A stretch of DNA of 64,000 bases. It comes from a bacterium. Lineage in GTDB: Bacteria; Elusimicrobiota; Elusimicrobia; UBA1565; UBA9628. Below are positions 32,234 to 53,433 of the stretch, in pieces; within the stretch, counting starts at the first letter, position 1; the number at the start of each line of letters is the position of its first letter. The position numbers were made by a program, and so were the translations under genes. The notes under the pieces are model-generated. The model was given only the letters and a program-made list of their open reading frames with translations. It was not told the DNA's origin and made no database searches. The stretch spans positions 42,548 through 106,547 of the forward strand of contig JAKAQO010000005.1 in the NCBI GenBank assembly GCA_021822495.1. The letters run 5' to 3'.

Positions 32234-32260
32234 AAAAGGGGACTGTCCCCTTTTTTAGTT
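32233..32260. terminator. REP (core 32238-32250) between convergent genes
   Basis: taAAAAAGGGGACTGTCCCCTTTTTT directly follows the TAA. Confidence 0.55.
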
Positions 32261-32848
32261 GCCGCGGAGAAAAAGCTTGATCATCTCCGCTCCCGCGTAA
32301 AAATAAAGCTCGCAGCGAATGGTAAAATCAGATTTAGACATTACGACATTGGAGACCACCAGCAAATTAGCGCCGTCGACTTTCTTGAATCCCTGTTCAA
32401 TAAGGTTTCGGCGATTTCCCTCCGATATCTCCGGCACGGACAAGATTAGAAGAGTCGAAAATAATTCCCCCAACTCCCCGCAAAAGCCGTGCGCGACGAT
32501 GTTCGATATCTCCTTGACCACGTCCTGGGGGGGAAACTGAGCGCTTGCGCCCACCTGCCGGTAATTTTTGCTCCAAGCCTGCCCTAGCAAAGCGACGCTG
32601 TCAGGAGACATAATCATATGGACGCCCAGGGGAATCCCATCTTGAAGGGGAAGATACGCCGACCAATACGGCTTGTCAGATTCCGGAAAAGTTGAAAAAA
32701 GCGGGGTCGCGAAATTGTGATAAATGGAGGAAGCCGTACATTTCCAGGGTTCTTGGCTTAATTTAGAAAGGTAATCCGCTGTTTTTTGCGCGCCCATATC
32801 CAAGGCGCTTAAAAGCAACTTCTGTTCTCTTGCCGAGAGAGCGTCCAT
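32255..32848 (-). CDS. CheC/CheX/FliY-family CheY-P phosphatase-like protein
   Basis: It contains the phosphatase consensus E-x2-N-x22-P: EISNIVAHGFCGELGELFSTLLILSVP. Confidence 0.55.
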   Translation of the reverse strand: MDALSAREQKLLLSALDMGAQKTADYLSKLSQEPWKCTASSIYHNFATPLFSTFPESDKPYWSAYLPLQDGIPLGVHMIMSPDSVALLGQAWSKNYRQVGASAQFPPQDVVKEISNIVAHGFCGELGELFSTLLILSVPEISEGNRRNLIEQGFKKVDGANLLVVSNVVMSKSDFTIRCELYFYAGAEMIKLFLRGN

Positions 32849-32851
32849 GAC

Positions 32852-33214
32852 TTAAGGGAAAACTTGCGCCAAAGCGGCCTTAATATCATCAACCACAAAG
32901 GGTTTGAGCAAAATTCCTGAAGCTCCCATTAACAAGGCCTGCTTTTGGAGCATTTTTTGATCATTGGCGGTCACGATCAAAATTTTTGCTTGGGGATGTT
33001 TGAGCCGCAATTCTTTTAGAACGAAAAGACCGTCCATATCTGGAAGGGAAATATCCAGGGTCATTAAATCCGGGTTGTGCTTGGCGTAATTGGCGATGGC
33101 GTCTTTGCCATTTTCGGCAAAGCCGACCACCGTGTGCCCCAAGCCTTCAAGAGTCGTAGTTAATAGGTCTCGCATCATCGGCAAGTCTTCGACGACGAAA
33201 ATATTTTTTCCCAT
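32852..33214 (-). CDS. CheY-like single-domain response regulator
   Basis: VVEDLP, the phospho-Asp context LMTLDISLPDMDG, T in LIVTAN, and K in LLKPF. Confidence 0.75.
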   Translation of the reverse strand: MGKNIFVVEDLPMMRDLLTTTLEGLGHTVVGFAENGKDAIANYAKHNPDLMTLDISLPDMDGLFVLKELRLKHPQAKILIVTANDQKMLQKQALLMGASGILLKPFVVDDIKAALAQVFP

Positions 33215-33273: not shown

Positions 33274-33651
33274 TCAAGCGTTCAAACGGCGTTCCAGCGC
33301 CTTGACCCGCGCCAGAAGAACTTCTCGTTCAAAGGGCTTGGTCACGTATTCATCCGCGCCCCGGTTGTATCCGCGAATTTGCTCGACAAGCAAAGCCCGG
33401 ACGGTCAGCATGAGAATCGGCAATTGGGCAAAACGAGGATCTGTGCGAATGCGCTCGGTGAGTTGAAGTCCGTCAAGCCTCGGCATATTAAGGTCAAATA
33501 TTCCCATGTCAATTTTATTTTTTTCCAGCTTTTCCCAGCCTTCCTGGCCGTCCACGGCCTCGACCACCTCATAGCCGTCTTCTTCAAGCATCATGCGAAG
33601 GATGTCCCGCACGCTCGCATCGTCATCCGCGATTAGAATTTTTTTAGCCAT
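33274..33651 (-). CDS. Single-domain receiver (CheY-like) response regulator
   Basis: ILIADDD, GIFDLNMPRLDG and VTKPF. Confidence 0.75.
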   Translation of the reverse strand: MAKKILIADDDASVRDILRMMLEEDGYEVVEAVDGQEGWEKLEKNKIDMGIFDLNMPRLDGLQLTERIRTDPRFAQLPILMLTVRALLVEQIRGYNRGADEYVTKPFEREVLLARVKALERRLNA

Positions 33652-33653
33652 CG

Positions 33654-34346
33654 CTATTTTTTCCTCCGCTGGATGACATTGGCGCTGTCCAACTCCCAGA
33701 CATAACCAATGCCGTGAACGGTCTTGATATAGAAGCCTGATTCCCCCAGCTTTTTACGCAGGGCCTCGATATGTTTGTCAACGGTCGAGGCTTGAACGCT
33801 ATCGGAGTCAGAACGAATCATCTGAAGGAGAGTTCTTCTTTCCAAGGCAACCCCGGGGCGTTCCAGGATAAACGCGAGGAGATCAAACTCCGTTTTCGTC
33901 AAATCGAGGGGTTTTTGATTTAAAACCGCAATTCGCCCCAGGCGGTCGATTTCGATTTTTCCGTCTTGAGATTTCAGCGTTCCAACAGCTTCCGGTTTAA
34001 CGAAGCGTCGAAACACCGCCTCAAGCTTAGCCGACAAAAGCTCTCCCGGCATATCCGGAGAAACCACGTCATCGGCCCCGGCGTTTAAAAGTTCGATGAG
34101 GCGCGCCGCATTTTGAAGACGGGAAGAAACTAAAAGAGAAAGCCGTGTTTCTTTCTCCCGAATAAGGTTTAAGCTTTGGGCATCGGGCAAAATTGATTCG
34201 AAGATAATGACGGTTCCCGGGGGCTTCGGCAAAAGGGCCAAAGCGCTTTTAAAATCCGTGCTTCTTAAAACTTTCCAGCCCCGGAGTAAAAATGCCTCCT
34301 CCCAGTTTTTTCCCAGCAATTCCGGCCCCGCGATTAGGATTTCCAT
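33654..34346 (-). CDS. OmpR-family winged-helix regulator with a degenerate (pseudo-)receiver domain
   Basis: The C-terminal trans_reg_C domain is intact (LTKTEFDLLAFILERPG...HGIGYVWE). In the N-terminal receiver, the acidic pocket is replaced (ILIAGPE instead of DD), the phospho-acceptor position is Glu (IIFESILPD), and the conserved Lys is absent. Confidence 0.55.
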   Translation of the reverse strand: MEILIAGPELLGKNWEEAFLLRGWKVLRSTDFKSALALLPKPPGTVIIFESILPDAQSLNLIREKETRLSLLVSSRLQNAARLIELLNAGADDVVSPDMPGELLSAKLEAVFRRFVKPEAVGTLKSQDGKIEIDRLGRIAVLNQKPLDLTKTEFDLLAFILERPGVALERRTLLQMIRSDSDSVQASTVDKHIEALRKKLGESGFYIKTVHGIGYVWELDSANVIQRRKK

Positions 34347-34372: not shown

Positions 34373-34497
34373 GGAAGAAAAAAAAGGGGACAGTCCCCTT
34401 TTCCTCATAAACTTAAGGTCGGGGACAGTGCCGTCCCTAAGAATTATGAAGAAGAGGCACAGTCCCCTTTTTTCTTCGTTATTTCTTCGTGATTGAT
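34373..34497. repeat. Composite 120-bp REP-containing leader element (copy 1), near-identical to 47086-47210
   Basis: Three REP-like cores (34386-34398; the variant GGGGACAGTGCCGTCCC at 34421-34437; GGCACAGTCCCC at 34456-34467) plus conserved flanks TTCTTCGTYATTTCTTCRTGATT. Confidence 0.6.
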
Positions 34498-34524: not shown

Positions 34525-37500
34525 ATGCGAAAAAAGAACATTTGTGAACTCGTCTCCGAAGGCGCCCAACAAAAACGTTCCCAAAAATTAGGAAGATGGG
34601 GACTCTCCCTAACTCTCCTCATTTTTCTCGCCGCCCAAGCAAAAGCACAGGTGCAAAATATTATCTCGACGCCGACCTATCCAGCCAACGGCTCTTATTT
34701 TAATCTGCAAAACCAAACGCCGAACTTTAACTGGTTCGGCCCTTCCACAACGACAATTCAATTAGCGACTTCTCCTGTTTACAATCTTCAGGTCGGCACT
34801 GACCCCACCTTTGCCGCCGGCCTTGTTATTAACGTGCAAATTGCCGCCGTGATCCCAAGCACCGGCCTCCCAAACGCTTATGGCTCCTACCTGTCTGGAA
34901 CTTCTCTAACCAATAACACCACTTATTATTGGCGCGTCTATGCGACAGATAGCTCCGGAGGCGAAAGTATGTCTTGGAGCACATTTAGCTTTGTGACTGA
35001 TTTTGCCCCTGATTCTAACCTTTCAGCATCTTACTCGGGAACGTTGAACTCTTTAGGACAGACTACTCCAGAAAACCAGTTTGTTTCTTTATCCAATGGC
35101 GCGACATCTCAATTATCCGTTTCGGCTTCATTCAGTGGGATTGCGGTTTCAAGCTCCGCCGTACCGTTAACCGGGGATAGCGCTAGTTTTACACAAGGAA
35201 CCAGCGGCTACGGTGTCCTCTATTCGACCAATTCCGGCACGACCTGGGAGGATTACTCCTCATTAGGCATAAATGTTCCAGCAGCTGGCGGTGGAGCTAC
35301 GATCTGGAATTTAGCTGTTTTTAACGGTTTTCTCTACGCTGGTCTAAGCAACGGTTCTATCATTCACACAAATAATGGAACGAGTTGGAATACGGATTAT
35401 ACTGGTTCAAATTATGGAATTGGTGGTTTTACCATATATAAAAACACTCTTTACGCCTCAAACCACGACGGTAGTAATGCGTATATGGTCTCAATTACCA
35501 ACGCTGGAACGGTCAACCGAGCCACTGTATTCAACTCTGGAGCGGGTGTGAGTAAACCAGTCGTTCTTAATAATACTCTTTTCGTCGAAGCTTCTTATAC
35601 TGGAATCCCCGCAGGAGATCCTGGAGCTGGCAACGCTGGAGGCGGAATTTTTGCGTCACAAGACGGCATCCATTGGGTTCAAACGTCCGGTGTTGGCGTA
35701 TGTAGCGACAACTTTGACCAGCTTTTTACATTTAATGGAGAGCTTTATGCAAATGTACAATCAGGGGGTTTTGGATGCAGCGGGTTATTCGTAAGCCCAG
35801 ATGGGGTCAATTGGACAACAATTGACAATCAAAGCGTTCCAGGAACTGTTAATACCGCCACAGTTTTTAATGGAAAACTTTATATTGGAGTAAACAATGG
35901 AGGCTCAAACCCGCTCCTCTATTCATCCACTAATGGGCAAAGCTGGTCAGCGGACAATGGAACACTGACCCAACCTTCCTTGGGGGGCAGTGTCAACGAT
36001 CTTAATGTGGTCAATGGCAAGCTTTACGCCGGTATTTCCACGACCACTGCCAGAATATATGTGACCGAGGATGGAAACAACTGGTTTCCATCAATTTCAG
36101 GCGGCACAGGACAAACAGGAGCAGGAGCGCCCGTTTATTTTAATGGGAATTTTTATGCCGCCGCTGGTCCCGATATCATCACCATCTCGCCCTTTAGCGC
36201 CTCTCTACCTGGTTCTAATGGAGAGCCTTCTGGAACGCTTTCTGCCGTCAGTCCGCAACTTGCCGCTTCAACCACGACAACTACTTGCGGCGGAGTGTCT
36301 CCTTGCAACGCAACCAACCAAGTCATATTTACCGCAAGCGATATGGCAGGAAACACCCTCATGTCTGGTCCTTATGCTATTTTAGTTGACACCGAGGTCG
36401 GGGTCGCCATTTCAACGCCCAGCTATCCGGGAACGCCGACAGTGGGACAGTCTCCTCCGGGGACAGTCCCTTACGTGAACGTTCAGCCCAATTTCGACTG
36501 GATTGGGCCTTCAACCGGGGTCGCTTCGGCTTTGCAGCAGCCCGCCAATTTTTTTCTTGAGGTCTCATCCAACGATCCAACTTTTTCGCCTTCTAATATT
36601 GTGATTAGCACCTCGACTCCGGTCGTCGTTTATTCCACCAATGTCCCCACCGCCAACGGAGCCTACCTTTCGCCTTACGTGCTGGGAAATAACACCACTT
36701 ACTATTGGCGCATCTATATAAAGGATAATCTGGGCGGAACCAGCCCCACATCCCCAACCTATAAATTTATCACGGATTTTGCTCAACCCGCAGTGTCCAC
36801 CTCCAGCTTTCAGAGCATCAATGCCCAAAGCTCGCTCTTACCGGAAAATCAGTTTAACGATCTCGCTTCGGGCGTCACCGCCCAAATTACGGTCCAAGAT
36901 ACTAATTCAGGCCTTGCCGTTTCGACCAGCGCGCTTTCTTTCGCGGGGGATGGACATGATGACCCTCCAATAACCTCGGGGTTTGGAATTATCTATTCCA
37001 CAAATGCCGGGTTCTCATGGATAGTGCAGTCCACCTCCGCTGAAGCCAACAACGGCAGCGCGGTGGGAACGGGAATTCGCTCATTAGCTGTATTTAATGG
37101 GGATATCTACGCTGGGGATTACAGCGGTCATGTCTATTACAGCGCCGACGGCAACACCTGGAGCGCGGGAACTCCCGGGACAAACCCCATTCAATCTTTA
37201 AGCGTCTTCAATGGAATCTTATACGCCGGAGACGGCGGAGGATATATTTACTCAAGTTCAAACGGCAGCACTTGGAGTACAACTAATGGCGGCTCTGCCG
37301 TTGGGGCAGGCATACTCGCAATGACCGTCTTTAACGGACAACTTTATGCCGGAGATAATTTTGCCCGCGTTTTTGTCATGGATGCAAGTGGAAATTGGCA
37401 TAACGTAGACGGCGGAACTGTTGGAACGAGTTCCATTGAATCCTTGGCCGCGTTCAACGGCCAACTCTATGCCGGAGATTATTATGGAAATATCTATGCC

Positions 37501-40500
37501 AGCACAAACGGAAGCTCTTGGAACAGTCTTGGAACTATCGGCAACTCCGGCTCTCTAATTGAGACCATGGCTGTTTTCAATGGAAAGCTTTACGCTGGAG
37601 ACAGTAATGGGTTTATTCATTTTAGCGCTAATGGAGCGTCATGGACCACCAGTAATAATGGAAGCGCTGTTGGATCTGGAATTACCGCTTTAACTGTCTT
37701 TAACGGCCAACTTTACGCTGTAGACGCTCTTGGTTATGTTCATATCAGCGCAGACGGAGTTCATTGGAACTCAATCAAGGTCGCTACGCAAGGAACGGGA
37801 TTAGCTGGATTTAATGGAAACCTCTATGTTGGCGACTATTACGGCGCCGTCTACAGAGCCATCCCTCTTGCCGCGACGCTTTCCGGGTCCGACGGGACAA
37901 CGGCCAGCCAAACCTTGTCGGCAAACAACCTCAATCTCGTTCAATCCACCACAACCGCGACCTGTGGCGGGACTTCGCCTTGCAGCGCGACCGATCAAAT
38001 CATATTTACCGCCTCTGATTTAGCAGGAAATGTCGTCGAAAGCGGGCCGTACGCGATTTTGGTAGACACCACCGTGGCGCCGGCGATTTCGACGCCTTCC
38101 TATCCTTTAAACGGAGCTTACCTCAATTTCAACCCTAATTTTAACTGGACCGGACCCTCAACCAGCATCGTCTCCGGGCTTTTGGCCCCTTCCTATTATC
38201 AACTTGAGGTTTCAAGCAATGATCCCACCTTCGCGACGGTCTTCGTCAATATTTCCACGCCCATTCCGCCGGTCAATACCGGTCTTTCCACCGATAACGG
38301 CGCCTATATTTCTACTTATACGTTTGCCAATCTGACCACTTATTATTGGCGCGTAAGAACTATTGATGGGTTCGGCGGAACCAGCCCCTGGTCCACAACC
38401 TTTAGTTTTACCACTGATTTCTCAAGTCCAACGGCCGTCGGCGGAAGTTTCGCGACGCTCAACAGTCTCGGGGGGCTTGTTCCAGAAAATCAGGTCACGG
38501 TTCTCCAGTCAGGCGTCACTGCTCAGATTAATATTACCGATATCGGTAGCGGGTTCTCCGCCTTTAATTCCTCAAATTATTCCGTCAGGTATTCCACCAA
38601 CGCCGGCCTCTCCTGGATTTCAGAACCCTTTTCCGCGCTCGCTTTTACGGGCTCTATCGGCCAAACCTCGACTCAAACCTTCACGGCCTACGGTCTTAAT
38701 CTCGCCGCCTCAACCAATTCTTATGTCTGCGGGGGAATTTCTCCTTGCGGCGCAACCAACCAAGTTGAATTTACTTTTTCCGATCAGGCCCTCAATTTCA
38801 GCACGGCCGGCCCTTTTGCCGTCATTGTAGATACTCATTCAACCGATGTTTTGGTCTCCACGGCCAATGTCGCGCCTTTGGGAATCCCCCAAAACACCTC
38901 GGTTGCCTTTATCCGCCTGACCTTGAACAGTCTCACTGGAACCGCACCCTGGACCGGGCTCACGGTTCAAAGGCTCGGCAGTGGAACGGACGCGGATGTT
39001 CAAAACGTCGCCATCTACCGTGATAACGCGGGAACCGGAATATTTTCTCCCTCGGATACTCAAATCACCCAAAATGCGGTCTTTTCGGGGGGAATCGTCA
39101 ATTTAACAATGACCAATCCCGAGAGTATTACGACCTCGACCAAGACCTATTTCCTTGTCTATACCGCGGCCCCGGGGGCGCTGGTCGGAGATGGGCTCGC
39201 GGCGGAAATTACATCAACCGCCTCTTTTACCTTCAGCAACGGATACCAGATGAGTTCGGCCCAGACGACGATTTATCCCTTGATCTCCAGCACCGCCACC
39301 GTGGTCGACGGTCCCAATTATCTCTACATCACTCCGGCGAGCCAAGCCCCCAACGATGCCCCGCCCGGAACAGCCAACATCGAGATGCTTTCTTTAAAAG
39401 CCTATACGAATACTGGAACAAGCACTCTTTCCAAAATTGTATTTCATCTCCTAGGAACCGGGGCTTCTAATGACATCAGCTCCATCTCCATCTACAGAGA
39501 CTCAAACGGCACTGGGGTTTATGCCCCCAATGACAGTTTGGTGACCAGCGGCTCGGACTCCTTTTTTAACGGAGTCTCAACCGTCGCTTTCACGACCACC
39601 ATCGCCTCCGAAACCGTGACCACCTCTCCCATTTATTATTTCGTCCTCATCAGCTTGTCTCCGAACGCGCCATTAGGAGATACCTTAGGAATATCTATTT
39701 CCACTACCTCGGACGTCGAGCTGATAGACGTCTTAGATACGACTACTTTTACGACCAGCCCCGCGGCCTCCTCTCTTTTGACCATTGAATACATCAATAC
39801 CTTGAACGTTCAGGGAGTCAACCAAATCCCGTCCTCCCTTTTACAGGGTCAGCAATACGCCATTTTAAAAGCGAGTTTTACGGTTTCGACTGGGGAAACT
39901 TCGTTTAACGGAATCACTATCACGCGCATAGGACTCGGCCATGATTCGGATGTTTCGGCCGTCAGGGTGTGGCAGGACCCCGCTCCACCCGAGACCTTTA
40001 ACCCCGCGACCTTTTTGCAGTTGAGTTCAGGAACCTTTGTGAACGGAAACGCGCAGCTAAACTTCCCGCTTCAAACCTTGTCCGCCGGAACCACCTACGT
40101 CTATTACGTGACCTATAACATTAGTCCCACCGCCCTTCAGGGAGACACCTTGGGCGGAAGAATTACCAGTAATCTCGATATCTCAGACACCAATCCCGGA
40201 ACGACGATTGTCGGCAATTTCTCGATTAATTCGGCCACTTCCCCCGTGGTTCCAACAACCGCAGGGCTTTTTGTCAGCGCTCAAAATGTCGCCCCGAGTG
40301 ATCTCTTGCAAGGCGCGACCAATCAACAAATGCTCAATTTGACGATGGATACCACTCAATACTCAGTTCTTTTGGGAGCTTTGACCTTTAATTCCTTGGG
40401 AACGGCTTCTTCTTCCGATATTTCGCGGGTGGAAGTCTACCAAGACCTCGTGGGAAACGGAATTTTAAATACATCGACCGACCCGCTTTTAAGCGCGGTT

Positions 40501-42960: not shown

Positions 42961-44485
42961 ATTTCTACTTCTCTCTTCCATATCGGCTTCCGCAGCCAGC
43001 AGCTTCTATGCCGGTTCTCCTAACGAAATTTTCCAGTTCGGAGCTGACGCCAGGGCCATGGGAATGGGAAACGCTTATACCGCAATCGCTGGCGGCGCGT
43101 CTTCTCTTTACTACAACCCCGCAGGACTCGGCCTTCTCAATGGTCCCGATATCAGCGCCATGCAGGCCAGTCTCATTGGCGGCGCGGCTTATGAAAATTT
43201 ATCCTATGCCCAGAATTTTTCAAAGATGCCTGGAGCTTGGGGAGTTGAAGCCCTCAACATGGGCGTTGGAGGGGCCGAGCAAAGGGACTCTCAAAATAAT
43301 TTGACCGGAAGTTTTGGCTTTCAAGAAACCGGATATGGAGCGGGATTTGGATTGCGAAATGTCGTCATTCCAGGTTTATCATTGGGAGGATCTTTCCAAG
43401 GGCTCAGCCGAAGCTTAGGTGGAAGTTCTTCCGACATGCTCTATGGAGCCAATCTCGGCGCCCAATACGGCCCTTTTTTTGATAATATGGTGACCGCCGG
43501 ACTCGTTCTCCAAAACGGCTTTAACGGAGCGCAAAACACCTTTGACCGGTTGCCTACGGTTCTACGCGCGGGCCTGGCCGTCACTCCCATCGACAATCTT
43601 CTTATCTCCGCGGACTATGGAAACGACGGAGATTATGGAATAGGCGCGGAATATAGAATATGGATGTTCGCCCTGCGAGCCGGATATATGCCGGAAGGCC
43701 TCACCTTTGGCGCTGGAATCTATTATAAATCAATGGAAGCCGATGTCGCGATGGTCAATGATCCGATTTTTGGAATGGGGGAGCGGTTTTCGATCAACTA
43801 CCGATTCGCGGGGAAGAAAAAAGAAAAGCCTCTCCAGACTTATACCAACAGTTATCTTGACGCCGCGAAAAAAGAACTTAATATTCGCAATTACCTCAGC
43901 GCGCAACTGGCTCTTGAAGAAGCGATGGGGATTGATCCAACCCAGATTCCCCAAATATGGAAGGAAAAACTCAAACTTCTTCAAGCGTTCAATCAATATT
44001 TAGATCTCAAGAATCGACCGGATGAGGTTAAGACTCTTCTCGCTAATGATCCGGCGGCGATACTCGCCCAAAAATCGATTTTTTCTTATTTAGAGGGGCG
44101 TGACGGCGATGCGATGATTTGGGCCTCCGTGGCCGCTGGAACGGCTCATAAATCCATGCCCTATATTGACTTTATCAAGACAATGGCTTATCTTACGAGT
44201 ATGAAGGTTTCGGAAGGAGATTTGTTGCCGCCGGCCGAATATGTTTCCAAAAAAATGGAGACTGCTCTTCAGGACATTTATCAAAAACGCTTCGCGAATT
44301 CAGTCAGAGATTGCCAACAGGCCATTGTGGTCAACCCGAAAGAATCTTCCGCCTGGACTCGTCTTGGCAGCGCTTATTTTGCCTGGGGACACAAACAAGA
44401 AGCCAAAAAGGCTTATCAAAAAGCCCTGGAGCTCGATCCCAAGGATGAAAATCTTAAGAAATTCATGGAGATCTATATCAAATGA
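42956..44485 (+). CDS. Outer-membrane beta-barrel protein with a PorV/PorQ-like N-terminal motif and C-terminal TPR; 5' start unresolved
   Basis: The signal-peptide-like segment KKGTVPFFLFLLLSSISASAASS is partly encoded by a REP. It is followed by FGADARAMGMGNAYTAIAGGASSLYYNPAGLG and Gly-rich beta-strands, with TPR at the C-terminus. No ATG/GTG/TTG start exists between the REP doublet and this segment. The frame is open back to 42161, antisense to the RAYT gene. Confidence 0.45.
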   Translation, partial: FLFLLLSSISASAASSFYAGSPNEIFQFGADARAMGMGNAYTAIAGGASSLYYNPAGLGLLNGPDISAMQASLIGGAAYENLSYAQNFSKMPGAWGVEALNMGVGGAEQRDSQNNLTGSFGFQETGYGAGFGLRNVVIPGLSLGGSFQGLSRSLGGSSSDMLYGANLGAQYGPFFDNMVTAGLVLQNGFNGAQNTFDRLPTVLRAGLAVTPIDNLLISADYGNDGDYGIGAEYRIWMFALRAGYMPEGLTFGAGIYYKSMEADVAMVNDPIFGMGERFSINYRFAGKKKEKPLQTYTNSYLDAAKKELNIRNYLSAQLALEEAMGIDPTQIPQIWKEKLKLLQAFNQYLDLKNRPDEVKTLLANDPAAILAQKSIFSYLEGRDGDAMIWASVAAGTAHKSMPYIDFIKTMAYLTSMKVSEGDLLPPAEYVSKKMETALQDIYQKRFANSVRDCQQAIVVNPKESSAWTRLGSAYFAWGHKQEAKKAYQKALELDPKDENLKKFMEIYIK

Positions 44486-47075: not shown

Positions 47076-47085
47076 AAGAAGAAAA

Positions 47086-47210
47086 AAAAGGGGACAGTCC
47101 CCTTTTCCTCATAAACTTAAGGTCGGGGACAGTGCCGTCCCTAAGAATTATGAAGAAGAGGCACAGTCCCCTTTTTTTCTTCGTCATTTCTTCATGATTA
47201 AATGCCGCTT
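47086..47210. repeat. Composite 120-bp REP-containing leader element (copy 2), near-identical to 34373-34497
   Basis: About 115 bp are near-identical to copy 1, including the variant core GGGGACAGTGCCGTCCC (47125-47141). Confidence 0.6.
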
Positions 47211-47228
47211 TTGTTCTACCCTATAACT

Positions 47229-48173
47229 ATGAGTGAAAGTCCAAAAGGTTCTATCTTTTCCTCATTAAGGGCATTAGAGGAAGTTCTGGAAGAAACTCCC
47301 ACTGCAATACCTACTCCGCAAAACGTTTCTCCCGCTCCTGTTCAAGCCGCACCACCGCCACCCACTCCCACGCCCATGAGTTCAACGCCGCCCGTTGATT
47401 CTTCAAGCGAAGCTCTCAAATCCGTGGAAGCAAAGATTGAAAAAATCGATCAAAAAATTCAGGAATTAGGAAATCTCCCAATCTCGCCAAATCTTGATCG
47501 CATTGAAGCTCTTGAGAAAAACCTACAACAGATGCAGGAGCGGGCCATCCAGGCAGAAGTTGCGCTCAGAGAACGAGAAAAATCCCAAGAAGCCGCAAGA
47601 CGTGAGACAGAATCTCTTCTTCAAAATCTAGCATCCCAAAGACGACTCGAAGAATCCGACAGGCAAATGAAGGAGAACCTGTCCTACTGCCGGCACCGCA
47701 TCGAGGAATTAGAAGAGCGGCAAGCCTCTCTCAAAATTTCAGATACGCAACAGTCGGAGCATGAGTTTAAATCGCTCTTAAAAAATTTTATGGAACAAAT
47801 CGACCTTAAAACAGCCCCGATTTTAACGTCTCTCCTTGAACTCAAGAAAGAGAATCAAAACCGCGAAAAAGAGAGTCTCAATATGGAAAAAAGGATAGGC
47901 CATCTTGAAACCAAAACCGCTAATAAAAGCCAAGTTGACGCTCTGCGCGAAGACTTCCTCCATTTAAAACAGTCCGTGGAAAAAATTAATTTGGAAACAT
48001 CGGAAAAGCTCGATAAAATAACCGCGGCATTAAGCCTATTGTCGCTTAAACTCCACAAAGATAAGGCAACAGAAGAATTAATCATTCTCGATAAAGAGTT
48101 TCAAAAAATACACTCTATTCTCAACGCCAATATTTCCAACTCTCCCAAACAAACAGGAATAGCCCCTGATTGA
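47229..48173 (+). CDS. Pro-rich N-terminus plus long coiled-coil protein (function unknown; placed in the motor-like cluster)
   Basis: A PAPVQAAPPPPTPTP segment is followed by heptad-rich sequence with abundant E/K/L/Q. The start at 47229 is the second in-frame Met; the ORF tracker starts at 47202. Confidence 0.4.
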   Translation: MSESPKGSIFSSLRALEEVLEETPTAIPTPQNVSPAPVQAAPPPPTPTPMSSTPPVDSSSEALKSVEAKIEKIDQKIQELGNLPISPNLDRIEALEKNLQQMQERAIQAEVALREREKSQEAARRETESLLQNLASQRRLEESDRQMKENLSYCRHRIEELEERQASLKISDTQQSEHEFKSLLKNFMEQIDLKTAPILTSLLELKKENQNREKESLNMEKRIGHLETKTANKSQVDALREDFLHLKQSVEKINLETSEKLDKITAALSLLSLKLHKDKATEELIILDKEFQKIHSILNANISNSPKQTGIAPD

Positions 48174-48211: not shown

Positions 48212-48949
48212 ATGGAACTGACATCGATTATCGGCCTTGGAGCAATTTTAACTCTAACCGCAATTGGGCTCGCCACGGGAGGGCTCCCGGCGGTTTTCAT
48301 CAACTGGCACGGAATCGGCATCGTCCTGGGCGGCACTTTTTGCGCCTTGATGATTAACACTCCCCTGGATATCTTGCTCAGAACTGGAGCGGCTATAACA
48401 GATTTAGTTTCAGCCGATCCTTACGTCGATCGCATCGCCCTTGTGGACGCGATCATGGCCTTGGCTCAAGAGGTTCAATCCCGAGGAATCAGCGCCTTTA
48501 ACAACGTCAACAAAACGGTTGCCGCTGGGTATCTCGCTTATGCCGCTCAAATTGCCGTCGAATACAATAATCCTGAAACCCTCCGGCAGGTCCTGGAAAA
48601 TGAGATTATTCAAAACTCCGATTTACAAAATGAAGCGGTCAACGTTTTTAGAACCGCAGGAATTTTGGCGCCGATGTTTGGGCTTTTAGGGACCTTGATC
48701 GGAATTGTCGAAGTTCTGCGCCAAATCGCCAACCCCGCTCAAGTAGGCTCCGCCATGGCAGTCGCCATTACTACCGCTTTTTATGGTATTGCGACGGCTA
48801 ACGTTTTTTGCGTGCCAATAGCTGGGAAATTGAGAATCAGGTATTGGAGAGAAACGCAGGCTAAAACCATGGTTTTAGAAGGCGTCTATGAAATTCTTCA
48901 ACGAACGCCCACCGTCATCATCTCCAGGAAACTAAAATCTTATTTATGA
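48212..48949 (+). CDS. motA: MotA/PomA-type proton-channel stator subunit
   Basis: Four TM helices with a large cytoplasmic loop. The TM3-TM4 core is APMFGLLGTLIGIVEVL...AMAVAITTAFYGIATAN. I chose the ATG at 48212; the ORF tracker's TTG is at 48170. Confidence 0.65.
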   Translation: MELTSIIGLGAILTLTAIGLATGGLPAVFINWHGIGIVLGGTFCALMINTPLDILLRTGAAITDLVSADPYVDRIALVDAIMALAQEVQSRGISAFNNVNKTVAAGYLAYAAQIAVEYNNPETLRQVLENEIIQNSDLQNEAVNVFRTAGILAPMFGLLGTLIGIVEVLRQIANPAQVGSAMAVAITTAFYGIATANVFCVPIAGKLRIRYWRETQAKTMVLEGVYEILQRTPTVIISRKLKSYL

Positions 48950-48975
48950 TAAAAAAGGGACAGTCCCCTTTTTCT
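48950..48975. repeat. REP (core GGGACAGTCCCC, 48957-48968) between motA and motB
   Basis: An intra-operon copy, so perhaps an attenuator rather than a full terminator. Confidence 0.5.
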
Positions 48976-48980
48976 TGATT

Positions 48981-49673
48981 ATGAGACGATCACGGCACGA
49001 AGACCTCGAAAATCAACTCGCGAAATCCGCCCAATGGGCTATTACCTACGGCGATTTCATGAGCTATCTCATGATTTTCTTTCTCATCATGTTCTCTTTT
49101 ACGCTCTCCAAATCCGGAGGGAAAACCACGGAAAACGTTAAATATCAGGAATCCTTGATTAAAATCCAGAAAGTCTTTGGGGGAAAAGGAAGCTCCCTGG
49201 ATTACGATCGCCTCATTAAGCGCGAAAAAGAAGAGTCCATGGTGACCCAACTCAAACAGGCTCTGGACAAGAAAGACTTGTCCAAATACGCGAAAATAGA
49301 AACCTGGGATAAAAAAATTCGATTAATTCTCGCTAGCGCGGTTCTTTTCGATTCAGGGCGAGCGACCTTGGCCCCGCGCTCGGAAAAAATTCTGGCCGCC
49401 GTCGCCCAACAGCTTAAGACTTTGGACAACCCCATTCAAATTGAAGGCCATACCGACAACGTGCCAGTTCGCGGCGGACGTTATAAGTCCAACTGGGAAC
49501 TTTCGATGGCGCGGGCTTATTCCGTGCTGGTCTTTTTGGAAAAGCAGGGCATCGCGCCTCAGCGCTTATCCGCGATTGGCTACGGCAAGTATCATCCCAT
49601 TGCCGACAACAACACCGCGGAAGGACGCGCTAAAAATCGTAGAATCGAGATAGATTTATTACGGACAGAATGA
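48981..49673 (+). CDS. motB: MotB-type stator subunit (single TM with a conserved Asp plus an OmpA-like peptidoglycan-binding domain)
   Basis: AITYGDFMSYLMIFFLIMF carries the channel Asp. The C-terminal OmpA-like region is ILASAVLFDSGRATL...IQIEGHTDN...NWELSMARA...NRRIEI. Confidence 0.7.
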   Translation: MRRSRHEDLENQLAKSAQWAITYGDFMSYLMIFFLIMFSFTLSKSGGKTTENVKYQESLIKIQKVFGGKGSSLDYDRLIKREKEESMVTQLKQALDKKDLSKYAKIETWDKKIRLILASAVLFDSGRATLAPRSEKILAAVAQQLKTLDNPIQIEGHTDNVPVRGGRYKSNWELSMARAYSVLVFLEKQGIAPQRLSAIGYGKYHPIADNNTAEGRAKNRRIEIDLLRTE

Positions 49674-49686
49674 GGAGAAATTAAAT

Positions 49687-50706
49687 ATGAAAAAGTCATT
49701 TGCGGTTCTATCTTTGAGCCTAGTTTTGTCGACGCTCGCTTTTTCAGCAGTCTCATCGCAAGCGAATAATTCAACAAGCTCTCCCGCCCAAGGGGCCACG
49801 GTCCCACATCCAAAAATTCCTCAGGATCCTTATCTGACAGCTCTTGACGATATCAAAAGTCCCATTCCCTCGGTTCGCTTAGCAGCCGTTCAAGTCTTGT
49901 CCCAAAACCGCAATCCCGCCTCTATCGCGCCTTTGACAAAAGCCCTTTCCGATAAAAGTCCGGCTGTCTGCGCCGCCGCGATTCACGCCTTGGGCCTTTT
50001 GAGGGTTAAAGCCGTGGCTCCAAAAATCGCGCAACTGCTCGCCACTTCCCCGTCTTCCCAAGTGAGGCAAAATGCGGCCGTCGCCTTGGCTTATCTGGCT
50101 GACCCGGCGGCCATCCCCACTTTAATTTCCGCCATATCCGATTCGCATCAAAGCGTTCGCTATGCGGCAATCAAAACTTTGGGCAGTCTCCACGCCCAGG
50201 CCGCGGTACCCGCCCTCATCAACACGCTCAAAAGTTCCAACGCTAATATTCGAGAGACTGCCGCCGCGGCCTTGGGGCAAATTCAATCTCCTCAAGCCTC
50301 CTCCGCTCTTGCCGGTTTGACGACCAATCCCAACATCCAGGTCCGGGAAGCCGCCGTCATCGCGCTGGGCTCGACCGGAGGCAAGGCCGCTATTTCTCCA
50401 CTTCTCAAGGCGCTTAAAGACGCGAATTTTTCCGTCAGCCTTGACGCAGCGCGTTCTCTTTCAAAACTGGGAAATTTTAAGGGAAAAAGCGTCGCTCTCA
50501 AAGGACTTAGCCAAAAAGATCCCTTTCTTAGGCAAGAAGCCGTTACAATTTTAGGAATGACCGGAGGGAAAAAATCTCTCCGGGCTATTGAAAAGCTCTC
50601 TAAAAAAGAAAAGGATCCCGCGACGATTAGCCTGATTGGCTTTGCCGAAGCCCAGATTAAGGGACGCCTCGGAATCAAACCCGCACCGCAATCGCGTAAG
50701 AAATGA
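49687..50706 (+). CDS. Secreted HEAT/PBS-lyase-like repeat protein
   Basis: A signal peptide is present, followed by about nine repeats of type VR..A..AL....A...L...L.D.... Confidence 0.55.
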   Translation: MKKSFAVLSLSLVLSTLAFSAVSSQANNSTSSPAQGATVPHPKIPQDPYLTALDDIKSPIPSVRLAAVQVLSQNRNPASIAPLTKALSDKSPAVCAAAIHALGLLRVKAVAPKIAQLLATSPSSQVRQNAAVALAYLADPAAIPTLISAISDSHQSVRYAAIKTLGSLHAQAAVPALINTLKSSNANIRETAAAALGQIQSPQASSALAGLTTNPNIQVREAAVIALGSTGGKAAISPLLKALKDANFSVSLDAARSLSKLGNFKGKSVALKGLSQKDPFLRQEAVTILGMTGGKKSLRAIEKLSKKEKDPATISLIGFAEAQIKGRLGIKPAPQSRKK

Positions 50707-52718
50707 GACGCCTCTTTGGCCTTTTCTTTTCGTTGGCCCTGAGTTTCCTTTTTATTTTTCTTTATCGGCCGCCCTTATTTAGAATCCAGGCCAACGATGT
50801 CTTCAATAATTTGGAGAATTCCTGGCAGGATTTTCTTTTTCGCCTTAACAAGGATCATTTAAGACGCGGAGACCCCCGCATTATCATTGCCGCTATTGAT
50901 GACCCGACCCTCCATCAGTACGGATATCCTCTCCCTCGAATAGTGTACGCGAAACTCCTAGATCGTCTTCGCGAACTTAAAGTCAAAACCGTGGCCTTTG
51001 ACGTTCTTTTTCCCGAGCACAGAAAGGGAGATTTTGAATTCGCTCAAGCTCTAGGAAAATTTAAAGAAAACGTTCTCGCTTATGCTTATGATAAAAATAG
51101 TTCCCAACATTTCGTTTTGCCCGCGCCTCCGCTTTATCAAGCCGCAAAAAGTCTTGGGTATGTCAATGTAGGAGATTCCATAGACCCTGATGGGCATATC
51201 CGACAGTTTCAGATTTTTCAATCTTCTTTTAAAAACCCGAAAAAAAATTCCATGGGAGAAGCTCTCTCGGTTCCGACGCTCGCCTATTTTACCGGGCAAC
51301 TCTTTCAAAAGACGACCGGCATCGCCCCAACGGATGCGCATTTCTATCTTAATGTCAGGCCTCCAACTTATGCCAATGATCAGAACGTGTTTTTTTCTTA
51401 TCCCGTTTTTTCCATCGCTAAGATTTTAAACAATAAGCTTCCGCAAAAAGAGAAAGACGCCTTGAAAGGCTCTTTGGTTTTAGTCGGTTCAACCGCTCTT
51501 TCCGCTTTCGATCATTATCCATCTCCCTTTAGCGACGTCAGCCCCGGAGTGGAATATCACGCTAACATTCTGGATAATCTTCTTCATCGCGACTGGATGC
51601 GCTTCTTTTCTCCTTTCTATCAGATTCTCATCATCCTCTTATTTATCTGGATTCCCTTTTTCCTAAGACGCGCGCCAACGCAGTGGGAAACGCTCTCGGT
51701 TTTCGGAGTTTTTCTGGCCTGGACTGGTTTTTGCGAATGGCAATTTCTGAAAGGCGTTCGCGTGGAATTCGTCCTTCCCTCCACAGCTCTTCTAACCTCT
51801 TTTATCGGCGAAACTATCCATCAGGCCTTGACCGAGGGGCGCGAGAAAAAATTCATCAAGAACTTATTCGCTCAATTTGTTTCTCCCGAAGTAGTCGAGG
51901 ATCTCGCAAAGAATCCGGATAAAATCAAGCTAGGGGGAGAGAAAAAAGACATGACGGTTCTTTTTCTCGATATCGCCCATTTTACCAGCATCTCGGAAAA
52001 GATGTCGCCGGAAGAGCTCATCAAATTTCTCAACCGCTATCTTTCGCGTTTAAGCCAGGTCATTCACGATCACGGCGGTGTCGTTGACAAATACATTGGA
52101 GATTCCATCATGGCTTTTTGGAACGCGCCCCTTGAGGTCAAATCCCATCGCGTCAAGGCCTGTCTTGCGGCCCTGTCTCTTCAAGACGCCGTTTTGGAAC
52201 TCAATAAGAACCTTCCTTCAAGCATCCCTCATCCGCCTCAAGTCAGAATTGGAATAAACTCCGGCTTTGTCACCGTGGGCCTCACTGGAAGCGAACACAA
52301 ACTTCAATATACCGTTATCGGAGACGAGGTTAATTTAGCCTCTCGCCTTGAAGGAGCCAATAAGTTCTTCAAATCACAGACGATGATCAGCGAAGCCGTT
52401 TACGCCGAAGCCAAAGCAGAAATTGAAGTCCGGGAAATCGGAATTATCCGCGTTCTGGGTAAGGAAACTCCCATCAAGACTTATCAGATTTTAGCTCGAA
52501 AAGGGGCGTTGTCTCGCGCCTGGAAAACAGCTCTTCCTATCTACAATCAAGCGCTTCAGGATGTCCGCAATAAAGAATACGTCAATGCCATCGCCCTCTT
52601 TGAGACTTTCCTTAAAATTATTCCCAATGATGGGACCGCTTCGTTTTATCTCTCCGCATGTAAAAAAGCTCAAGAGAGCACTCCCTGGGACGGAATTATT
52701 CATTTGACCGCCAAATAA
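50703..52718 (+). CDS. CHASE2-sensor class III adenylate/guanylate cyclase
   Basis: An N-terminal periplasmic CHASE2-like domain is followed by TM helices. The cyclase motifs are TVLFLDIAHFT, YIGDSIMAFWNAP, RIGINSGFVTVG and VIGDEVNLASRLEG. Confidence 0.75.
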   Translation: MRRLFGLFFSLALSFLFIFLYRPPLFRIQANDVFNNLENSWQDFLFRLNKDHLRRGDPRIIIAAIDDPTLHQYGYPLPRIVYAKLLDRLRELKVKTVAFDVLFPEHRKGDFEFAQALGKFKENVLAYAYDKNSSQHFVLPAPPLYQAAKSLGYVNVGDSIDPDGHIRQFQIFQSSFKNPKKNSMGEALSVPTLAYFTGQLFQKTTGIAPTDAHFYLNVRPPTYANDQNVFFSYPVFSIAKILNNKLPQKEKDALKGSLVLVGSTALSAFDHYPSPFSDVSPGVEYHANILDNLLHRDWMRFFSPFYQILIILLFIWIPFFLRRAPTQWETLSVFGVFLAWTGFCEWQFLKGVRVEFVLPSTALLTSFIGETIHQALTEGREKKFIKNLFAQFVSPEVVEDLAKNPDKIKLGGEKKDMTVLFLDIAHFTSISEKMSPEELIKFLNRYLSRLSQVIHDHGGVVDKYIGDSIMAFWNAPLEVKSHRVKACLAALSLQDAVLELNKNLPSSIPHPPQVRIGINSGFVTVGLTGSEHKLQYTVIGDEVNLASRLEGANKFFKSQTMISEAVYAEAKAEIEVREIGIIRVLGKETPIKTYQILARKGALSRAWKTALPIYNQALQDVRNKEYVNAIALFETFLKIIPNDGTASFYLSACKKAQESTPWDGIIHLTAK

Positions 52719-52719
52719 C

Positions 52720-53433
52720 ATGATTATATTTTGGCGCCTCTTATTTGGGCATTTATTGGCGGATTTTACGCTCCAAACCAATGCCGTCAATCGCTGGAAA
52801 AGAAAAAATATTTTTGGGATGCTGTTTCACTGCGCCATGCACCCCGTTCTCTACGCGCTTTTAACCTATCCCTATCTTTCCCGTCCCTGGATTGAATGGA
52901 AAAGTTTCAGTCTAAACGGATGGGCTTGCGTAATCATTCTTTTTTTAGTTCATTGGCTTGAGGATGAATGGCGGGTTTTCACTATCTTTAAATACCGCAC
53001 TCCGGACAATACGCTTTACTTTCTCTGGGATCAAGTCATCCACGTCGCGCTGATTTTCGCGGTAGCGCCTCTTTTGGCCTTTTCCAACCCTTCCCAAGGG
53101 TTTATCCCCGAGAAATGGCCTATCCTAGGATGCCTGTTTGTTATCGCGACTCATTTCAGCGCCATTCTGATTTATTTCATCGAACAAGATTTTTTCGGGA
53201 CGCCCTTTCCAGGAACTTTCAAAAAATATTCCCAGATGGCCGAACGCCTGGGGCTTGTCCTTTGTTTTTTCGCGCCTCATGATCTCTGGCCTGTATTAGC
53301 CTCGGCTTGGATCGGAAGCATGGCTTTTCTCCGCATAAAAAAACGCGATCAATTCTCATGGACCAGCTTCTTGATTGGCGCTCCTCTCGCCGGGATTTGC
53401 GGTTTTCTCTCCAGAATCTTGTATTATCATTAG
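52720..53433 (+). CDS. DUF3307-family membrane protein
   Basis: The N-terminal HLLADFTLQ signature is present, with multiple TM helices. Confidence 0.5.
   Translation: MIIFWRLLFGHLLADFTLQTNAVNRWKRKNIFGMLFHCAMHPVLYALLTYPYLSRPWIEWKSFSLNGWACVIILFLVHWLEDEWRVFTIFKYRTPDNTLYFLWDQVIHVALIFAVAPLLAFSNPSQGFIPEKWPILGCLFVIATHFSAILIYFIEQDFFGTPFPGTFKKYSQMAERLGLVLCFFAPHDLWPVLASAWIGSMAFLRIKKRDQFSWTSFLIGAPLAGICGFLSRILYYH

Follow-up and report, generated by a model that had tools for sequence, protein, structure and literature searches.

Why would a bacterium from a phylum in which flagella are mostly lacking encode a flagellar-type stator and a FliG-bearing protein beside a PorV-like outer-membrane barrel and a giant secreted adhesin? 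The question is raised by a 21-kb block (32255-53433) within a 64,000-nucleotide stretch of an Elusimicrobiota contig (JAKAQO010000005.1, hereafter the window). A preliminary description proposed, as a hypothesis only, that the block is a gliding or surface-translocation machine not recognized as a described system. The results presented below point to an undescribed proton-powered envelope machine, in which a stripped-down flagellar rotor and stator are retained in a conserved gene cluster with an outer-membrane barrel and often a giant surface adhesin.

Gene content of the locus

The observation itself is confirmed: every listed gene is present. The block contains the following features, in some cases with revised boundaries or assignments.

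32255..32848 (-), CheC/CheX-like putative CheY-P phosphatase; lineage-specific accessory
32852..33214 (-), second CheY-like receiver (RR1); lineage-specific accessory
33274..33651 (-), single-domain response regulator (RR2) with canonical DD/D/T/K residues; conserved partner receiver of the system
33654..34346 (-), OmpR-type DNA-binding regulator with a pseudo-receiver; conserved with the system
34374..34473, copy 1 of a 100-nt exact repeat, upstream of the giant gene
34525..42159 (+), giant secreted repeat protein (2544 aa), with a T9SS type-A-like C-terminal domain (CTD) at about 41884-42156
42153..42827 (-), RAYT-like IS200/Y1 transposase; mobile element, not part of the machine
42935..44485 (+), outer-membrane PorV/FadL-type β-barrel with a C-terminal (periplasmic) TPR domain
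44562..47075 (+), rotor-kinase fusion (837 aa)
47078..47177, copy 2 of the 100-nt exact repeat, upstream of the coiled-coil/motAB genes
47202..48173 (+), cytoplasmic coiled-coil protein of unknown function
48212..48949 (+), MotA, flagellar-type stator A subunit
48975..49673 (+), MotB, stator B subunit (alternative ATG start at 48981)
49687..50706 (+), secreted HEAT-repeat protein
50703..52718 (+), CHASE2-sensor class III nucleotide cyclase
52720..53433 (+), DUF3307 membrane protein

The OmpR-type regulator matches Trans_reg_C (E 2.8e-19) but gives no Response_reg hit, and its degenerate receiver lacks the DD pocket and the phospho-accepting Asp. RR2 and RR1 are canonical single-domain receivers (Response_reg, E 1.7e-29 and 3.7e-28, respectively). 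The 197-aa protein encoded at 32255-32848 has only a weak Pfam CheC hit (E 0.1, below cutoff) but carries an exact D-x3-E-x2-N-x22-P CheC/CheX phosphatase motif. As there is no CheA, CheW, or MCP, the designation of these genes as a chemotaxis-like operon is an overstatement.

The giant protein consists of a signal peptide, three β-propeller-like/Ig modules, about 1100 aa of conserved Ig-like repeats, fn3, and the CTD (hits to DUF6242, Ig_Rha78A_N, fn3, and FlgD_ig). The isolated CTD scores 30.6 bits against TIGR04183 (cutoff 23). The PorV-like open reading frame, 42161-44485, is real only from about 42935: its first ~260 codons are read-through of REP elements and the antisense of the transposase gene (Y1_Tnp, E 2.9e-14), and the start codon is uncertain because a REP copy encodes part of the signal peptide. 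The protein scores 71.5 bits against NF033709 (PorV_fam), below the cutoff of 90, and contains a TPR domain not mentioned in the preliminary description. In its AlphaFold2 model (pLDDT 90.7), the barrel spans residues 72-290 and the TPR domain residues 300-514; the best PDB fold match is PorV (6h3i_F, E 6e-10), followed by FadL.

MotA matches MotA_ExbB (E 2.4e-22); its best NCBIfam hits are flagellar MotA/PomA, with TolQ/ExbB only marginal, and PDB MotA/PomA entries are matched at E 1e-27 to 1e-23. MotB contains the plug, the transmembrane Asp (YGDFM), and an OmpA-like peptidoglycan-binding domain (MotB_plug and OmpA; MotD/MotB families). The coiled-coil protein matches no Pfam family above its curated cutoff. 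The remaining genes are assigned by HEAT_2 (E 2.3e-75), CHASE2 (E 3.7e-42) with Guanylate_cyc (E 2.5e-25), and DUF3307 (E 3.7e-13).

The duplicated leader noted upstream of two of the genes is also real, as 34374-34473 equals 47078-47177 at 100/100 nt. It is a composite of REP-like palindromes, made of AAAAGGGGACWGTCCCCTTTT, which gives 48 strand-hits in the window against 0.08 expected, and it matches no Rfam family above threshold. It is a mobile REP-type repeat and not evidence of co-regulation.

Conservation of the cluster

Conservation of the whole block in related genomes, proposed beforehand as the test of a functional link, holds for its core but not for its periphery, and the preliminary interpretation is therefore only partly supported. 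The core comprises the giant CTD protein, PorV-TPR, the kinase/FliF-FliG rotor, the coiled-coil protein, MotA, MotB, one receiver, and the OmpR-like regulator. The core order recurs in 71 loci from species-representative genomes (all named ones Elusimicrobia/Elusimicrobiota), at 30-45% protein identity; the adjacency is therefore not due to chance. The PorV-TPR gene precedes the rotor gene in 56 of 56 evaluable loci, and MotA (58/64) and MotB (42/46) lie beside it. A histidine kinase is fused to the rotor (19 loci, including the window) or adjacent to it (41/42). A giant CTD protein lies upstream in 14 of 14 loci of the fused type (type A), but in only 4 of 32 type B loci, which constitute the majority. 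The CTD is found at the exact C-terminus of every type A giant protein, and the C-terminal 1100 aa are 33-37% identical in four of the fetched loci (L001, L004, L006, and L007). Orthologs of RR2 (49-55% identity) lie next to MotB in the same four loci, while orthologs of the OmpR-type regulator are found in L001 and L007 (35-37% identity) and in further loci. The N-terminal half of the coiled-coil protein is conserved (35-41% identity in L001, L004, and L006), and a gene of this class is present in most loci, between the rotor gene and motA or motB. Genes overlap or abut in relatives, which suggests one operon, and all core genes are under purifying selection (dN/dS 0.03–0.15).

By contrast, the cyclase, HEAT, and DUF3307 genes are found only in the two closest relatives (L009 and L010), although a HEAT-FlbD-MotA-MotB operon occurs in one distant lineage (L084). 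The CheX-like gene has no homolog in any fetched locus, and RR1 has no clear ortholog there, only weak receiver-domain similarity. The transposase is absent at the corresponding position in L011 and in distant loci. No other conserved neighbor family emerged from clustering all unassigned open reading frames: the largest cluster covers only nine loci, and the recognizable ones look like housekeeping genes.

The rotor protein and the stator

The rotor protein comprises an N-terminal transmembrane helix, HisKA/HATPase kinase domains (about 44823-45500), a second transmembrane helix, a FliF RBM3-like periplasmic domain (about 45603-46097), a third transmembrane helix, a disordered linker, and the FliG middle and C domains (about 46383-46979). 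The kinase has no sensor domain of its own: one transmembrane helix is followed by a coiled coil running into the H-box. The FliG region matches 1lkv (E 3.6e-21). A Foldseek search with the predicted structure retrieved FliG, the FliF RBM3/collar (6sd1_A, E 1.9e-6), and FliG_C in the MotAB complex (8ucs_H, TMt 0.79); however, the model has only moderate confidence (pLDDT 68.5, pTM 0.31). The FliG N domain is absent and the FliM-binding EHPQR motif is degenerate, as expected if there is no C-ring.

The helix-MC/Gly-Gly hinge of FliG is the most invariant motif in the family (75/75), and the torque helix keeps a basic residue at the R281 position (60/75) and an acidic residue one turn on (57/75). 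In MotA, the equivalents of P173 and P222 are invariant and that of E150 is present in 68/69 sequences, while the YGD[LF]M motif with the channel Asp is found in 48/57 MotB orthologs. The canonical charge pairs, however, are not preserved: the MotA E98 equivalent is Lys or Arg in 56/69 sequences (Asn in the window), the R90 equivalent is Gln or His in the fused subtype, and the equivalents of FliG D288/D289 are Gln and Ser/Thr/Met. The stator-rotor interface may be rewired or may work differently.

Functional interpretation

The locus is best explained, with roughly even confidence, as a conserved non-flagellar envelope machine found almost only in Elusimicrobiota and built around a minimal flagellar-type rotor-stator pair. 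The data establish its composition: one inner-membrane protein combining the FliF RBM3-like domain with the FliG middle and C (torque) domains, a sensor-less histidine kinase fused to it or encoded next to it, MotA/MotB and the PorV-TPR barrel at the frequencies given above, the giant CTD protein in the fused subtype, and one receiver and an OmpR-like regulator that travel with the cluster. Its operation, in contrast, is inferred, with no experiment or imaging behind rotation, ring formation, or any link to the outer membrane. In this view, the RBM3/FliG protein would oligomerize into a membrane ring, and MotA5B2 units anchored to peptidoglycan would turn it, or be gated by it, using the proton gradient. 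The motion or force would be passed through the periplasmic ring and the TPR arm to the PorV-like barrel, which would hold the CTD of the giant adhesin, so that the adhesin is exported, positioned, or moved on the cell surface, as a functional analog of GldLM-driven T9SS/SprB gliding. The rotor-attached kinase would report motor state to the receiver and OmpR-like pair or be controlled through them; the kinase-rotor gene fusion implies physical coupling. The cyclase, HEAT, DUF3307, and CheX-like genes are local additions. A role in gliding or adhesin handling is plausible but remains an inference, and the scarcity of CTD cargo near type B loci means that adhesin handling cannot be the universal output. 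Moreover, no SprA-like translocon, PorK/N, PorU, or PorZ is seen in any locus, and the model leaves unexplained how a 2544-aa protein would cross the outer membrane. The non-flagellar context is indicated by the lack of any flagellar export, rod, hook, or filament gene in the window or in any gene table of the related loci; for the genomes as a whole it rests on the literature.

Alternatively, though less likely, the module could be a signaling device, in which the MotAB channel and the RBM3/FliG ring act as a proton-motive-force or envelope-stress/load sensor gating the attached kinase, which then controls transcription (e.g., of the adhesin) through the receiver and the OmpR-like regulator. 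The near-universal fusion or adjacency of a sensor-less kinase in the core (type A and B) loci, the conservation of the two regulators, and the lack of conservation of the canonical torque-generating charge pairs agree with this possibility. Yet a pure sensor would not need a ring-building domain, a full FliG middle and C region with an invariant hinge, a plugged and peptidoglycan-anchored stator, and a dedicated barrel-TPR partner in 56/56 loci; moreover, one distant subfamily locus (L082) has a TPR protein, rotor, MotA, and MotB with no kinase at all.

It is more doubtful that the module serves another apparatus encoded elsewhere, for example by modulating type IV pili (twitching) or energizing a phylum-specific secretion route, with the PorV-like protein and the adhesin being only loosely related neighbors. 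One type B locus is followed by PilB/PilT/PilC genes, twitching has been speculated upon by Uzun et al. (bioRxiv 10.1101/2022.07.08.499144), type B loci mostly lack a CTD cargo, and pairs of cargo and PorV genes occur independently of the rotor in one locus (L083). However, Pil genes are adjacent in only one of more than 80 loci examined, and both the universal PorV-TPR linkage (56/56) and the lack of other conserved neighbor families speak against this reading. A decaying relic of a lost flagellum, or a chance juxtaposition, is very unlikely. A few Elusimicrobiota lineages are flagellated, so that flagellar genes were available to be left behind, and REP elements and a transposase have invaded the cluster in the window; nevertheless, this reading is effectively refuted by the conserved gene order and purifying selection. 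The open reading frames are intact, the family has diversified into 156 clusters (50% identity) at E≤1e-30, and novel fusions (kinase, RBM3-FliG, and PorV-TPR) are maintained.

Relation to known systems

The claim that the system has not been described holds as far as the searchable literature goes, in which only a passing remark on these genes was found. Uzun et al. report that most free-living Elusimicrobiota lack structural flagellar genes yet carry motAB, flbD, and fliG of unclear role, which are most likely the same or related gene families. Theirs is a KEGG-level gene census only, and it does not describe the cluster, the FliF-RBM3/FliG fusion, the kinase fusion, the PorV-TPR partner, or the CTD adhesin.

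The rotor-stator core of the flagellar motor (FliF MS-ring, FliG, and MotA5B2) shares flagellar-type MotA and MotB with the plug, channel Asp, OmpA-like anchor, and conserved Pro and Glu residues, the FliG middle and C domains with the Gly-Gly hinge and torque helix, and an RBM3-like periplasmic domain followed by a transmembrane helix. An engineered FliF-FliG fusion, solved as an MS/S-ring (PDB ID: 8z4d), appears among the sequence hits. The Elusimicrobiota cluster differs in having no export apparatus, rod, hook, filament, FliM/FliN, or FliG_N, a degenerate EHPQR motif, only one RBM, a rotor covalently joined to FliF-like transmembrane segments and to a histidine kinase, altered charge pairs at the MotA-FliG interface, and a PorV-TPR protein and a giant CTD adhesin as operon partners.

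With the type IX secretion and gliding apparatus of Bacteroidota (GldLM/PorLM motor, PorV, SprB with SprF, and the PorXY two-component system), the cluster shares its logic: an inner-membrane 5:2-type proton motor, a PorV-family barrel, a giant repeat adhesin ending in a TIGR04183-type CTD, a two-component system encoded with it, and an adhesin gene directly followed by its barrel partner, as with sprB-sprF. The motor, however, is MotAB acting on FliG rather than GldLM, no GldK/N ring, SprA/Sov translocon, PorU, or PorZ is present in any locus, the PorV-like protein scores below the family cutoff and carries an extra TPR domain, and the phylum lies outside the FCB group. In the Myxococcus Agl-Glt gliding machinery, a flagellar-stator relative (the AglRQS TolQR-type motor) likewise powers a trans-envelope complex (Glt) that acts on a surface adhesin (CglB). 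AglRS is listed as a gliding-motility stator homolog (PMC12505986). Agl proteins belong to the TolQR/ExbBD-like clade and have no FliG partner, and the components are unrelated apart from the stator superfamily.

Gene content of the locus

All genes named in the preliminary description were confirmed by ORF listing and by Pfam and NCBIfam scans, so the observation itself held. Two ORF boundaries were corrected: the "774-aa" PorV ORF is real only from about 42935, its upstream part being read-through of repeats and the antisense of a transposase gene, whereas the rotor gene starts at 44562 (ATG preceded by GGAGG) and not at 44241. The features are, in order:

32255-34346, minus strand: four proteins, namely an OmpR-type regulator whose receiver lacks the acidic pocket, two canonical single-domain receivers, and a 197-aa protein with a CheC/CheX-type motif
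34374-34473: first copy of a 100-nt exact repeat
plus strand: a 2544-aa secreted repeat protein with a T9SS type A sorting domain
42153-42827, minus strand: a RAYT-type Y1 transposase gene
from about 42935, plus strand: a PorV-like barrel with a C-terminal TPR domain
from 44562, plus strand: a histidine kinase/FliG fusion, the putative rotor protein
47078-47177: second copy of the 100-nt exact repeat
plus strand: a coiled-coil protein
48212-50706, plus strand: MotA, MotB and a secreted HEAT-repeat protein
plus strand, following: a CHASE2-class III cyclase and a DUF3307 protein

The 197-aa protein scores only E 0.1 against Pfam CheC but carries an exact D-x3-E-x2-N-x22-P phosphatase motif. The regulators had been described as a chemotaxis-like operon; only receiver domains and this CheC/X-motif protein are present, and no CheA kinase, CheW adaptor or MCP receptor was found within the window. 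The isolated C-terminal domain (CTD) of the giant protein passes the T9SS type A sorting-domain model (TIGR04183, 30.6 bits against a cutoff of 23, E 2.4e-7). A self-BLAST of this protein for repeats gave nothing useful; its internal repeats are seen at the DNA level instead (repeat families D6/D7).

The PorV-TPR gene has no ATG, GTG or TTG in frame between the transposase gene and its signal peptide (42828-42960), because a REP copy (42936-42956) encodes "KKGTVPFF", the n/h region of that peptide, and the nearest in-frame start is a TTG at about 42818. The related loci L009 and L010 share this arrangement, while L011 does not.

The duplicated leader and the REP/RAYT repeats

The "duplicated leader" pointed out in the preliminary description is real, in that 34374-34473 and 47078-47177 are identical over 100 nt. 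Both copies are composites of the palindrome AAAAGGGGACWGTCCCCTTTT, which gives 48 strand-hits in the window against 0.08 expected and sits in nearly every intergenic gap, including the one between motA and motB. The palindromes form a dense family at about 24 intergenic sites (e.g., 1592, 10150, 23203/23231, 26221/26258, 28506/28543, 42167/42203, 44488/44525, and 59171/59199), often in doublets about 37 nt apart. The RAYT-type transposase gene (Y1_Tnp, E 2.9e-14) is inserted between the giant gene and the PorV gene, and RAYT homologs also flank the same motor cluster in 14 other fetched loci (e.g., L017, L028, L032, L040, L049, L057, and L073). Thus, both elements of a REP/RAYT system, dispersed short palindromes and a Y1 (IS200-like) transposase, are present. 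An Rfam scan of 32-54 kb gave only sub-threshold hairpin-like hits on the repeats, and no riboswitch or leader family was found. Since the shared leader is one of about 24 REP sites accompanied by a RAYT gene, it is a REP/REPIN-like, putatively mobile repeat and not evidence of co-regulation, a reading that was rejected.

The putative rotor protein

The C-terminal 515 aa of the fusion align to the middle and C domains of Thermotoga FliG (PDB ID: 1lkv, E 3.6e-21). In an AlphaFold model of moderate confidence (18-sequence alignment, pLDDT 68.5), a periplasmic alpha-beta-beta-loop-beta-beta-alpha-beta domain is followed by a long TM helix, a disordered linker and the FliG helices. The loop of this RBM3-like domain carries a conserved ELLPGVP. 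Foldseek matches this model to FliG_MC (E 1e-11), to the RBM3/collar region of the FliF MS-ring (PDB ID: 6sd1_A, E 1.9e-6, TMt 0.55), and to FliG_C as bound to MotAB (PDB ID: 8ucs_H, TMt 0.79). The N-terminal half is a TM-anchored HisKA/HATPase kinase with no sensor domain. The protein is thus kinase – TM – FliF(RBM3) – TM – FliG_MC, and behaves like a natural FliF-FliG fusion that lacks FliG_N, RBM1, and RBM2. Neither FliG nor FliF is complete: FliG is represented by its M and C domains only (TIGR00207, 66.6 bits against a cutoff of 226.7), and FliF by a single periplasmic domain of about 165 aa (TIGR00206, 29.5 bits against a cutoff of 129.75) that matches only the RBM3/collar fold.

The predicted outer-membrane partner

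An AlphaFold model of the PorV-like protein (52-sequence alignment, pLDDT 90.7) shows a β-barrel (residues 72-290) followed by a TPR domain of about 215 aa, which by general barrel topology should be periplasmic. The best PDB match is PorV from the SprA-PorV translocon complex (PDB ID: 6h3i_F, E 6e-10, TMt 0.62), ahead of FadL; however, the protein scores 71.5 bits against NF033709, below the cutoff of 90, and the TPR domain is not seen in the matched PorV structure.

Conservation of the cluster

A word-indexed protein search found 21 relatives of the rotor, which understated the family. A pattern scan of one genome per GTDB species found 71 loci, and all named ones are Elusimicrobia/Elusimicrobiota, while an exhaustive HMMER search found 156 clusters (50% identity) at E<=1e-30. 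Of 30 sampled, the named ones are Elusimicrobiota apart from one Saganbacteria MAG; this full-length member of the RBM3-FliG family (P0194), labelled Candidatus Saganbacteria, could reflect horizontal transfer or a binning error. A scan of viral contigs found no relative of the rotor protein.

Gene order falls into two architectures. In type A (19 of the 71 scanned loci, plus the window), the giant CTD protein is followed by PorV-TPR, the kinase-rotor fusion, the coiled-coil protein, MotA, and MotB, then by a receiver and/or an OmpR-like regulator. In type B (52 loci), the order is PorV-TPR, kinase, MotA, rotor, coiled-coil protein, and MotB.

Table. Features of the cluster, counted over evaluable loci
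PorV-TPR upstream of the rotor gene: 56/56
MotA nearby: 58/64
MotB nearby: 42/46
Kinase adjacent (type B): 41/42
Giant CTD protein upstream, type A: 14/14
Giant CTD protein upstream, type B: 4/32

The CTD lies at the extreme C-terminus of all type A giants. In some loci (L001 8040-8432, L019 6965-7369, L046 468-878, and L054 7004-7381), small ORFs of about 130 aa between the giant gene and the PorV-TPR gene consist of little more than a second copy of the same sorting domain. In locus L083 (1-5327), two independent pairs of a CHU_C/Por_Secre_tail-tailed cargo gene with a gene for a 300-aa PorV protein suggest that the pairing of a cargo with its cognate PorV is a general habit in these genomes, as with SprB-SprF.

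More distant subfamilies keep the theme: a giant FlgD_ig-tailed protein followed by the rotor; a TPR protein followed by the rotor, MotA, and MotB; and a TPR protein followed by a rotor-TPR gene with HEAT-FlbD-MotA-MotB nearby. The last of these operons (L084 17633-20397, minus strand), together with MotA-MotB-HEAT in the window (48212-50706), shows that an association of HEAT-repeat proteins with MotAB recurs in two distant lineages. PilB-, PilT-, and PilC-like genes lie about 2.5 kb downstream of one type B cluster (L002 15621-19695), after an intervening 754-aa gene, and were seen in this one locus only.

Conservation across related genomes, the check proposed for a functional link between the genes, supports the preliminary interpretation only in part. 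The core recurs, whereas the HEAT, cyclase, and DUF3307 genes of the window recur only in its two closest relatives, the CheX-like gene has no homolog in any fetched locus, and the second CheY gene has only weak receiver-domain matches and no clear ortholog. Clustering of all unassigned neighboring ORFs across 79 loci revealed no further conserved component; the largest cluster covers only 9 loci, and the recognizable ones (e.g., an aminoacyl-tRNA-synthetase-like ORF) look like housekeeping genes. Against the relative L010, dN/dS is 0.03-0.15 for every core gene.

Conserved residues of the stator and rotor

The stator is of the flagellar type, as reflected by Pfam matches to MotA_ExbB, MotB_plug, and OmpA; flagellar MotA/PomA/MotD families are the best NCBIfam hits, though below equivalog cutoffs. 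The channel Asp motif YGD[LF]M is kept in 48/57 MotB orthologs, and in MotA the equivalents of P173 and P222 are kept in 69/69 sequences and that of E150 in 68/69. The most invariant stretch of the rotor family is the helix-MC/Gly-Gly hinge (LKEELERRLSGAVGG; GG in 75/75). In contrast, the FliM-binding EHPQR motif is degenerate: across 75 sequences EHPQ becomes E-D-P-A and R160 becomes N/S/H, while the window has E-P-A-N and Q at these positions, which fits the absence of FliM/FliN.

In the flagellar motor, MotA R90/E98 pair with FliG D289/R281 (PMC7564593; PMC12505986). Here, these classical charge pairs appear not to be preserved: the R90 equivalent is R in 43/69 sequences (Q/H in type A, Q in the window) and the E98 equivalent is K/R in 56/69 (N in the window), as mapped on an E. 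coli MotA sequence that was written out rather than taken from a database record, although it did show the expected residues at positions 90, 98, 150, 173, and 222. On the FliG side, the R281 equivalent is K/R in 60/75 sequences, and the D288 equivalent is Q in 64/75, with a conserved Glu at the preceding position in 57/75. The interface appears charged but rewired, and any torque generation by it would be an inference beyond what the sequence can decide.

Comparison with known systems

The cluster would work most like a hybrid of two known systems. Its inner-membrane half is homologous to the flagellar rotor-stator core, while its outer half follows the logic of the Bacteroidota T9SS/gliding apparatus (PorV-family barrel, CTD-tailed giant adhesin, and two-component control). 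It is not a flagellum: FliG_N is absent, there is no C-ring, the fliG and fliF equivalog scores are far below cutoff, and no flagellar type III export, rod, hook, or filament gene was found within the 64-kb window or in the gene tables of related loci. It is not a T9SS either, as no PorL/PorM (GldL/GldM) motor, PorK/N (GldKN) ring, SprA/Sov translocon, or PorU/PorZ attachment complex appears in the window scans or in any locus gene table, the motor present is MotAB, and the PorV model score is below cutoff. Zorya anti-phage defence (ZorAB) was also ruled out, since PADLOC gives no ZorA hit for MotA and only generic ZorB/MotB-OmpA hits for MotB; the hits of the cyclase to PycC reflect generic class III cyclase similarity.

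No paper describing this cluster was found in literature searches on FliG in Elusimicrobia, FliG with PorV, non-flagellar or FliG-like proteins, PorV/T9SS in Elusimicrobia, and MotA/MotB in Elusimicrobiota. Uzun et al. (bioRxiv 10.1101/2022.07.08.499144) state that most free-living Elusimicrobiota lack structural flagellar genes yet carry motAB, flbD, and fliG homologs whose role is "unclear" and "enigmatic". A 2025 survey of MotAB evolution (PMC12505986) does not mention Elusimicrobia anywhere in its text.

Inferred mechanism and its significance

The analysis establishes a conserved operon-like unit under purifying selection, which encodes a FliF-RBM3/FliG_MC membrane protein, a flagellar-type MotAB, a PorV-like barrel with a TPR domain, a rotor-linked kinase with its receiver and regulator, and (in type A) a giant CTD-tailed surface protein, in a phylum reported to be mostly non-flagellated. 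What such a unit does can only be inferred, as no functional data exist. The rotor protein might form a ring to which MotAB applies PMF-derived force; the force, or a conformational signal, would reach the PorV-TPR barrel, which would bind the C-terminal domain of the adhesin, so that the adhesin is exported, positioned, or moved, while the kinase would couple motor state to gene expression or control. That the genes form a conserved functional unit is nearly certain, and genuine rotor-stator mechanics are somewhat more likely than not, whereas adhesin translocation or gliding, the latter proposed in the preliminary description as a hypothesis, remains doubtful.

Other explanations are less favored. 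The module could be a signaling device that senses the PMF or load, which is considered unlikely, and it is still less likely to be an accessory of pili or another apparatus. A relic or a chance juxtaposition is very improbable, being contradicted by the conservation and the dN/dS values.

In its boldest form, which is possible but tentative, the cluster would encode a previously unknown kind of bacterial rotary machine, in which a flagellum-free FliF(RBM3)-FliG ring is turned by MotAB and mechanically drives an outer-membrane PorV-TPR/giant-adhesin module, giving gliding or adhesin export, with the histidine kinase built into the rotor acting as a torque or load sensor. This would be the first use of the FliG-MotAB torque interface outside the flagellum, and either a snapshot of how the flagellar rotor can work as a stand-alone module or an exaptation after flagellar loss. 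As far as could be found, FliG and MotAB have been shown to work together only inside flagella, while here a conserved module keeps just the torque-generating pair, joined to a single FliF ring-building domain and a kinase, and linked to an outer-membrane barrel and a giant adhesin. If it rotates, it is a new way of coupling the proton gradient to the cell surface, and a natural minimal rotor for studying torque generation, ring assembly without a C-ring, and the modular evolution of the flagellar motor. It could explain how uncultured, non-flagellated Elusimicrobiota, including the magnetotactic ones, move or attach. Even if it proves to be a sensor, a kinase fused to a FliG rotor would be a new signaling architecture.

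Other genes in the window

Outside the cluster, a TPR-Ser/Thr protein kinase gene is followed by two ORFs of about 530 aa (4102-5697 and 5719-7302) with no Pfam match, the whole spanning 1657-7302. Two convergent AAA_14/DUF4143 ATPase genes at 7444-9828 are separated by a REP site.
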